From Escherichia coli (GTDB lineage: Bacteria; Pseudomonadota; Gammaproteobacteria; Enterobacterales; Enterobacteriaceae), in assembly GCF_003334385.1 (NCBI RefSeq), contig NZ_QOWN01000177.1: a stretch of DNA of 475 nucleotides; one strand, written 5' to 3'. How positions within the stretch are numbered: position 1 is the first letter of the stretch; the number at the start of each line of letters is the position of its first letter. Of the stretch, positions 281 to 402 are shown piece by piece. The notes beneath the pieces were generated by a model. The model was not told where the DNA came from and did not search any database. It saw only the letters and a list, made by a program, of their open reading frames with translations. Both the position numbers and the translations under genes were made by a program.

Positions 281-301
281 GTACACACCGCCCGTCACAC
301 C
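281..301 (+). other. rrs: Decoding-centre (A-site) strand of helix 44 and the universal 1392-1406 primer region (E. coli 1392-1412)
   Basis: GTACACACCGCCCGTCACACC. By the n+1111 offset, C289 is C1400, C291 is C1402, G294 is G1405, T295 is U1406, C296 is C1407 and A297 is A1408. All are the wild-type bases. Confidence 0.95.
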
Positions 302-380
302 ATGGGAGTGGGTTGCAAAAGAAGTAGGTAGCTTAACCTTCGGGAGGGCGCTTACCACTTTGTGATTCATGACTGGGGTG

Positions 381-402
381 AAGTCGTAACAAGGTAACCG
401 TA
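381..402 (+). other. rrs: 3' strand of helix 44 with A1492/A1493 (381-382), the colicin E3 cleavage position (between 382 and 383) and m3U1498 (387); universal 1492R primer-binding site
   Basis: AAGTCGTAACAAGGTAACCGTA is the exact reverse complement of the universal primer 1492R (TACGGTTACCTTGTTACGACTT). Its position is consistent with the offset, since 381+1111 = 1492. Confidence 0.95.

Follow-up and report, generated by a model that had tools for sequence, protein, structure and literature searches.

The decoding site in the 3' part of an Escherichia coli-type 16S rRNA gene carries the wild-type bases at aminoglycoside-relevant positions

Aminoglycoside resistance at the 16S rRNA decoding site

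The 2-deoxystreptamine aminoglycosides bind helix 44 of 16S rRNA, rearrange A1492 and A1493 and promote miscoding (PMC6348987). Ring I of the drug forms a pseudo-pair with A1408, and N1-methylation of this base by NpmA, whose plasmid-borne gene (npmA) encodes the enzyme that makes m1A1408, disrupts the pairing (PMC5716097). In hosts with a single rrn operon, substitutions at this site raise the MIC 512-fold (G1491U), up to 64-fold (G1491A), 128-fold (U1495C) or about 1000-fold (U1406C/U1495A), and A1408G abolishes susceptibility (PMC3140962). Mutations of the A site are often lethal (PMC3140962, PMC6983231); A1408C and A1408U are two that are (PMC6983231).

For E. coli, the PointFinder table gives T1406A and A1408G for gentamicin, substitutions of A1519 for kasugamycin and C1192T for spectinomycin, and the same list also holds A523C, G527T, C528T, A794, G926 and G1064-G1068 (PMC5890747). 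Streptomycin sites lie around positions 530 and 912 (PMC8701281). The sevenfold redundancy of rrn in E. coli makes mutations of the drug-binding site recessive and rare, and gene conversion tends to revert them (PMC4683628). In Campylobacter, which has three copies, the equivalent of A1408G gives stable resistance solely when all of them carry it (PMC11539217).

We compared these systems with a stretch of 475 bases, here called the window. The resistant rrs alleles described in mycobacteria, Campylobacter, Nocardia and engineered E. coli (A1408G, U1406A, C1409U, G1491U/A and U1495C) concern the same helix 44 site in the same numbering, and the window differs from them in carrying none of these substitutions. 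Methylated A sites (m7G1405, made by ArmA/Rmt, and m1A1408, made by NpmA) differ in another respect: the methyl group is added after transcription by enzymes whose genes are located elsewhere than in the rRNA gene, whereas the window consists of 475 bases of rDNA. Both target bases, G1405 and A1408, are present in the window, so that the rRNA transcribed from it would be a substrate for these methyltransferases. A preliminary description of this DNA had pointed out that methylation of the rRNA (m1A1408 by NpmA, m7G1405 by ArmA/Rmt) cannot be seen in a DNA sequence, and we agree, as both marks are added after transcription.

Judged from its sequence, the window is almost certainly the end of a standard 16S rRNA gene of the E. 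coli type (nucleotides 1112-1542) together with the initial 44 nt of the 16S-23S spacer; the region to which the preliminary description drew attention is helix 44 with the decoding A site, corresponding base for base to the drug-sensitive reference, a wild-type state that is universal in E. coli. The features of the window are as follows.

1..431, plus strand: 3' part of the 16S rRNA gene, E. coli positions 1112-1542 (RF00177; 431/431 identity to rrsB; annotated 100% matches)
80..82, plus strand: spectinomycin site of helix 34, A1191-C1192-G1193, wild type as read out from the bases (C1192T is listed in PointFinder)
288..393, plus strand: helix 44, 16S 1399-1504, closed by C1399-G1504, with the region 281-382 of the preliminary description (mapped from the Rfam consensus)
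293..298, plus strand: 5' strand of the decoding A site, C1404 G1405 U1406 C1407 A1408 C1409 (identical to the seven K-12 copies)
339..342, plus strand: UUCG tetraloop capping helix 44, 16S 1450-1453 (hairpin loop in the Rfam structure line; sequence read-out)
380..386, plus strand: 3' strand of the decoding A site, G1491 A1492 A1493 G1494 U1495 C1496 G1497 (identical to rrsB)
395..418, plus strand: helix 45, 16S 1506-1529 (ten consensus pairs, all canonical; loop with A1518/A1519 at window 407/408)
424..428, plus strand: anti-Shine-Dalgarno CCUCC, 16S 1535-1539 (sequence read-out; the mature 3' end is window position 431)
432..475, plus strand: start of an E. coli-type 16S-23S internal transcribed spacer, 44 bases (no difference from K-12 rrnG and rrnD over 44/44)

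Identity, numbering and origin of the window

Positions 1-431 of the window (plus strand) scored 431.3 bits against the covariance model of bacterial small-subunit rRNA (SSU_rRNA_bacteria, RF00177; Rfam cmscan, E = 7.6e-136). As this exceeds the curated gathering score of 50, the fragment belongs to that family. The match spans model positions 1102-1533 of 1533; it is cut solely at the 5' edge of the window and reaches the last model position at window position 431, where the annotated end of rrsB also falls. For numbering, we used rrsB of E. coli K-12 MG1655 (annotated length 1542 nt), of which window 1-431 is an exact, ungapped substring (rrsB 1112-1542, 431/431 identical). The window starts at 16S position 1112 and represents 28% of the gene. 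The preliminary description had worked with an E. coli position equal to the window position plus 1111, and it had named any other offset to rrsB as what would overturn its base assignments; the alignment revealed neither gap nor shift, and the offset is exact.

A megablast search with the whole window matched all complete E. coli genomes (5,426/5,426) at 99% identity or more, with a median of seven places per genome. Among the matches listed, every one is annotated as "16S ribosomal RNA" and many are identical over 475/475 bases (100%). The near-identity of the 16S tail and the E. coli-type start of the spacer together place the window among the E. coli/Shigella rrs-ITS sequences.

In K-12 MG1655, the tails of rrsG and rrsD are identical to the window over 475/475 bases, among them A at spacer +15 and C at spacer +21. 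The rrsB copy is likewise identical over 16S 1112-1542 and differs at a single spacer position, window 452, which is C in the window and T in rrnB (ITS +21). As for the other operons, rrsC and rrsE differ from the window at spacer +15, rrsA at +15 and +21, and rrsH at 16S 1120 only; the only window positions that vary among the seven K-12 operons are 9 (C1120T, rrsH), 446 (+15, A/T) and 452 (+21, C/T/A). The T1120 variant was present in 256/5,433 E. coli records, and the matches listed are laboratory strains of the K-12 type. Assignment of the window to one particular rrn operon was ruled out, as rrnG and rrnD are both identical to it over the 475 bases despite their different spacer tRNAs (tRNA-Glu in rrnG, tRNA-Ile/Ala in rrnD).

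An exact 58-mer covering the 16S end and the spacer start had 0 matches in the GTDB species representatives. The exact rrnG/rrnD-type spacer start is therefore missing from the genome that represents E. coli in this set, and such a scan contributes little on provenance. When +15 and +21 were relaxed, the 58-mer had three matches in the same set (E. coli E69 and two contigs of metagenome-assembled genomes, MAGs). Among the species representatives, this spacer pattern was seen only in E. coli and in these two MAG contigs, which carry an E. coli-type tail.

These matches bear on the question of whether the window comes from an E. coli chromosome at all, or whether its source could be a record labelled as a plasmid, a clone of an rrn operon, or a metagenome bin that is contaminated or chimeric. 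A 475/475 match to the window occurs in one plasmid record labelled "Salmonella enterica" and in several "plasmid" records of E. coli, and E. coli-type 16S tails occur in MAG contigs labelled Desulfovibrio and Oxalobacter. Against such an origin, the E. coli collection contains 37,967 places that match, and 37,957 of these lie on chromosomes. The usual vectors with cloned rrn operons are derived from rrnB, which has T at spacer +21 where the window has C; this argues against such a vector as the source. We therefore consider a source other than the E. coli chromosome unlikely, and the reading of the decoding site as wild type would not change with the provenance of the DNA.

In contig USBZ01000017.1 (MAG "uncultured Desulfovibrio sp. 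UMGS1580"), the 16S gene at 11756-13344 is chimeric: it is 66-94% identical to rrsB at positions 1-800 and 100% identical at 801-1542, and an E. coli-type spacer follows. We rejected the view that the whole contig is an E. coli contaminant, because the 11 kb upstream of the 16S gene gave no E. coli match and a chimeric 16S gene explains the observation. It looks like an assembly join inside a conserved part of the 16S gene, in a genome that serves as a GTDB species representative. In JAHAYL010000010.1 (MAG "Oxalobacter sp. MBin.057"), the terminal 151 bases (1-151, reverse strand) match window 325-475 with one mismatch at spacer +15; this tail is probably a second case of a chimeric or mis-binned piece of rRNA.

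In PLSDB, 22 "plasmid" records match the window at 99% identity or more. They include E. coli records of 4.8-4.9 Mb with seven rrs places, which are chromosomes filed as plasmids, as well as CP088xxx records of 6-20 kb and others from Salmonella enterica, of which NZ_LN868946.1 matches over 475/475. In the RefSeq E. coli set, ten rrs places are located on records classed as plasmids. In E. coli Nissle 1917 (NZ_CP007799.1), 19 places match the 16S tail, compared with the median of seven per genome, and the best match consists of two pieces spread over 658 bases for a query of 475 bases, which suggests duplicated or mis-assembled rrn sequence in this assembly.

Decoding-site bases and the structure of helices 44 and 45

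On the 5' strand of the decoding site, the bases read out from the window equal those of rrsB (G1405 at window 294, G; U1406 at 295, T; C1407 at 296, C; A1408 at 297, A; C1409 at 298, C), and the same holds for the 3' strand (G1491 at 380, G; A1492/A1493 at 381/382, A A; U1495 at 384, T). The preliminary description had called G1405, U1406, A1408, C1409, G1491, A1492/A1493 and U1495 wild type. It was correct for each of them, since all 431 bases of rRNA sequence in the window show 100% identity to the reference. Its range of 281-382 (16S 1392-1493) does not extend to U1495 (window 384), which its text cites and which lies two bases further on; this cosmetic slip leaves the base calls untouched. 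It had also counted A1492 and A1493 among the aminoglycoside-relevant positions; both are wild type. They make up the decoding switch, which is displaced by the drug, and neither turned up as a resistance site in the sources that we consulted.

With the reference base at 1406, 1408, 1409, 1491 and 1495, the window does not belong to the target-site aminoglycoside-resistant 16S alleles. Further drug-related sites within it are wild type as well, namely C1192 (window 81), C1496 (385), U1498 (387) and A1519 (408). C1496 and U1498 are linked to hygromycin B, and A1518/A1519 (window 407/408) are the sites dimethylated by KsgA.

The Rfam consensus structure was mapped on the window, in which positions 281-382 (16S 1392-1493) make up most of helix 44. 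The consensus pairs of this helix are canonical in 35 of 37 cases, the exceptions being C1402-A1500 and A1413-G1487, and those of helix 45 in 10/10. Pairing in both helices and the 3'-terminal anti-Shine-Dalgarno sequence agree with the structure expected of an RF00177 member. At the decoding site, the consensus pairs C1404 with G1497, G1405 with C1496 and C1409 with G1491, and it leaves U1406, C1407 and A1408 unpaired opposite A1492, A1493, G1494 and U1495, which is the internal loop of the A site. At window 339 (16S U1450), E. coli E69 (CP089930.1), the strain that represents the species in GTDB, has C as the first base of the UUCG loop in the rrs copy that matched; U1450C in this strain is a natural intra-species variant and is distant from the decoding site.

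When helix 44 was folded alone (ViennaRNA), the minimum free energy was -33.4 kcal/mol with an unremarkable z-score of -1.37, and the fold shared 24 of the 37 consensus pairs. We rejected this thermodynamic fold as a guide to A-site pairing because its register had slipped (1406-1492, 1407-1491, 1408-1490), and we relied on the covariance-model structure in its place. The isolated fold, with 1407 opposite 1491, could have led a reader astray. A misnumbering, in which the window does not lie at offset +1111 and the bases called wild type belong to other positions, has no evidence in its favor and is contradicted by the exact ungapped match to rrsB 1112-1542 and by the Rfam alignment that ends on the last model position at window 431. 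We consider it extremely improbable and retain the assignment of the region to helix 44 with its standard numbering.

In the mechanism that we assume for this copy, the pairs C1409-G1491 and G1405-C1496 around the internal loop would form the binding pocket for 2-deoxystreptamine aminoglycosides. A bound drug would pseudo-pair with A1408 and keep A1492/A1493 flipped out, which would lead to miscoding. We infer from the sequence that ribosomes containing RNA from the copy in the window would present an unaltered, sensitive target, unless post-transcriptional methylation of this RNA, or modification or exclusion of the drug, intervenes.

Resistance substitutions among E. coli genomes

Our survey covered about 37,900 rrs copies in 5,426 complete E. 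coli genomes and used 81-mers that each carry one central substitution. In this search, a mutant copy reaches 100% identity and the wild type 98.8%, and the cut-off was set at 99% or more. For A1408G, G1491T, C1409T, T1406A, T1495C and G1491A, no record reached 99% among the 5,426 complete E. coli genomes, a result that holds for these six substitutions on an otherwise consensus 81-mer (G1405 substitutions, U1406C, G1491C and U1495A lie outside the query set), in which a mutant copy with a second nearby difference would score as wild type and be missed, and for assemblies whose rrn copies may be polished towards the consensus. The 81-mer for T1120, which in K-12 occurs only in rrsH, served as a positive control and matched 256 records at 99% or more and 5,177 at 95-99%, so a variant carried by a single copy out of seven is within reach of the method. 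The seven K-12 rrs copies are identical to each other at 1400-1411 and 1489-1500.

The base rate is therefore zero of six documented decoding-site substitutions in any rrs copy of the 5,426 complete E. coli genomes. It follows that a wild-type decoding site is the default in E. coli and no finding by itself. Being the universal condition of the species, with a prior probability of essentially one, it is barely informative, and nothing about it is new.

The preliminary description had gone further and stated that none of the rRNA point mutations known to confer aminoglycoside resistance occurs in this copy. This is right for the sites inside the window and too broad for the gene, as 16S 1-1111 lies outside the window. 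Sites of streptomycin, kasugamycin or spectinomycin resistance at 523-528, 794, 912, 926 and 1064-1068 are located upstream, and the window bears on 16S 1112-1542 only. The preliminary description had rightly cautioned that other rrn copies, too, lie beyond the DNA shown. A single wild-type copy tells little in an organism with seven, because target mutations are recessive.

The strain could be resistant at the target while the copy in the window is wild type, through a mutation in 16S 1-1111 (530 loop or 912 region) or in other rrn copies. The window spans only 28% of the gene, streptomycin sites are documented around 530 and 912 (PMC8701281, PMC5890747), and Campylobacter transformants with a mixture of wild-type copies and copies carrying the A1408G equivalent have been observed (PMC11539217). 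On the other side, the survey found the six decoding-site substitutions tested in no copy of the 5,426 complete E. coli genomes, mutations of this kind are recessive to six wild-type alleles and reverted by gene conversion in E. coli (PMC4683628), and the mixed states in Campylobacter are unstable without selection (PMC11539217). Weighing these points, we regard target-based resistance of the strain as highly improbable. Even less probable, to the point of being negligible, is that the window is the wild-type copy of an E. coli strain heteroplasmic for a 16S resistance mutation, be it in another rrn copy or in the 5' 1111 nt; if true, such a strain would represent natural target-site aminoglycoside resistance in an enterobacterium with seven operons.

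Our preferred reading remains that of an ordinary E. coli-type 16S tail with a wild-type decoding site. The check shows that the numbering of the 16S fragment in the preliminary description can be trusted, and that this copy would offer the standard aminoglycoside target. Aminoglycoside resistance in E. coli is to be sought in acquired genes, such as those for modifying enzymes and 16S methyltransferases, and not in rrs.
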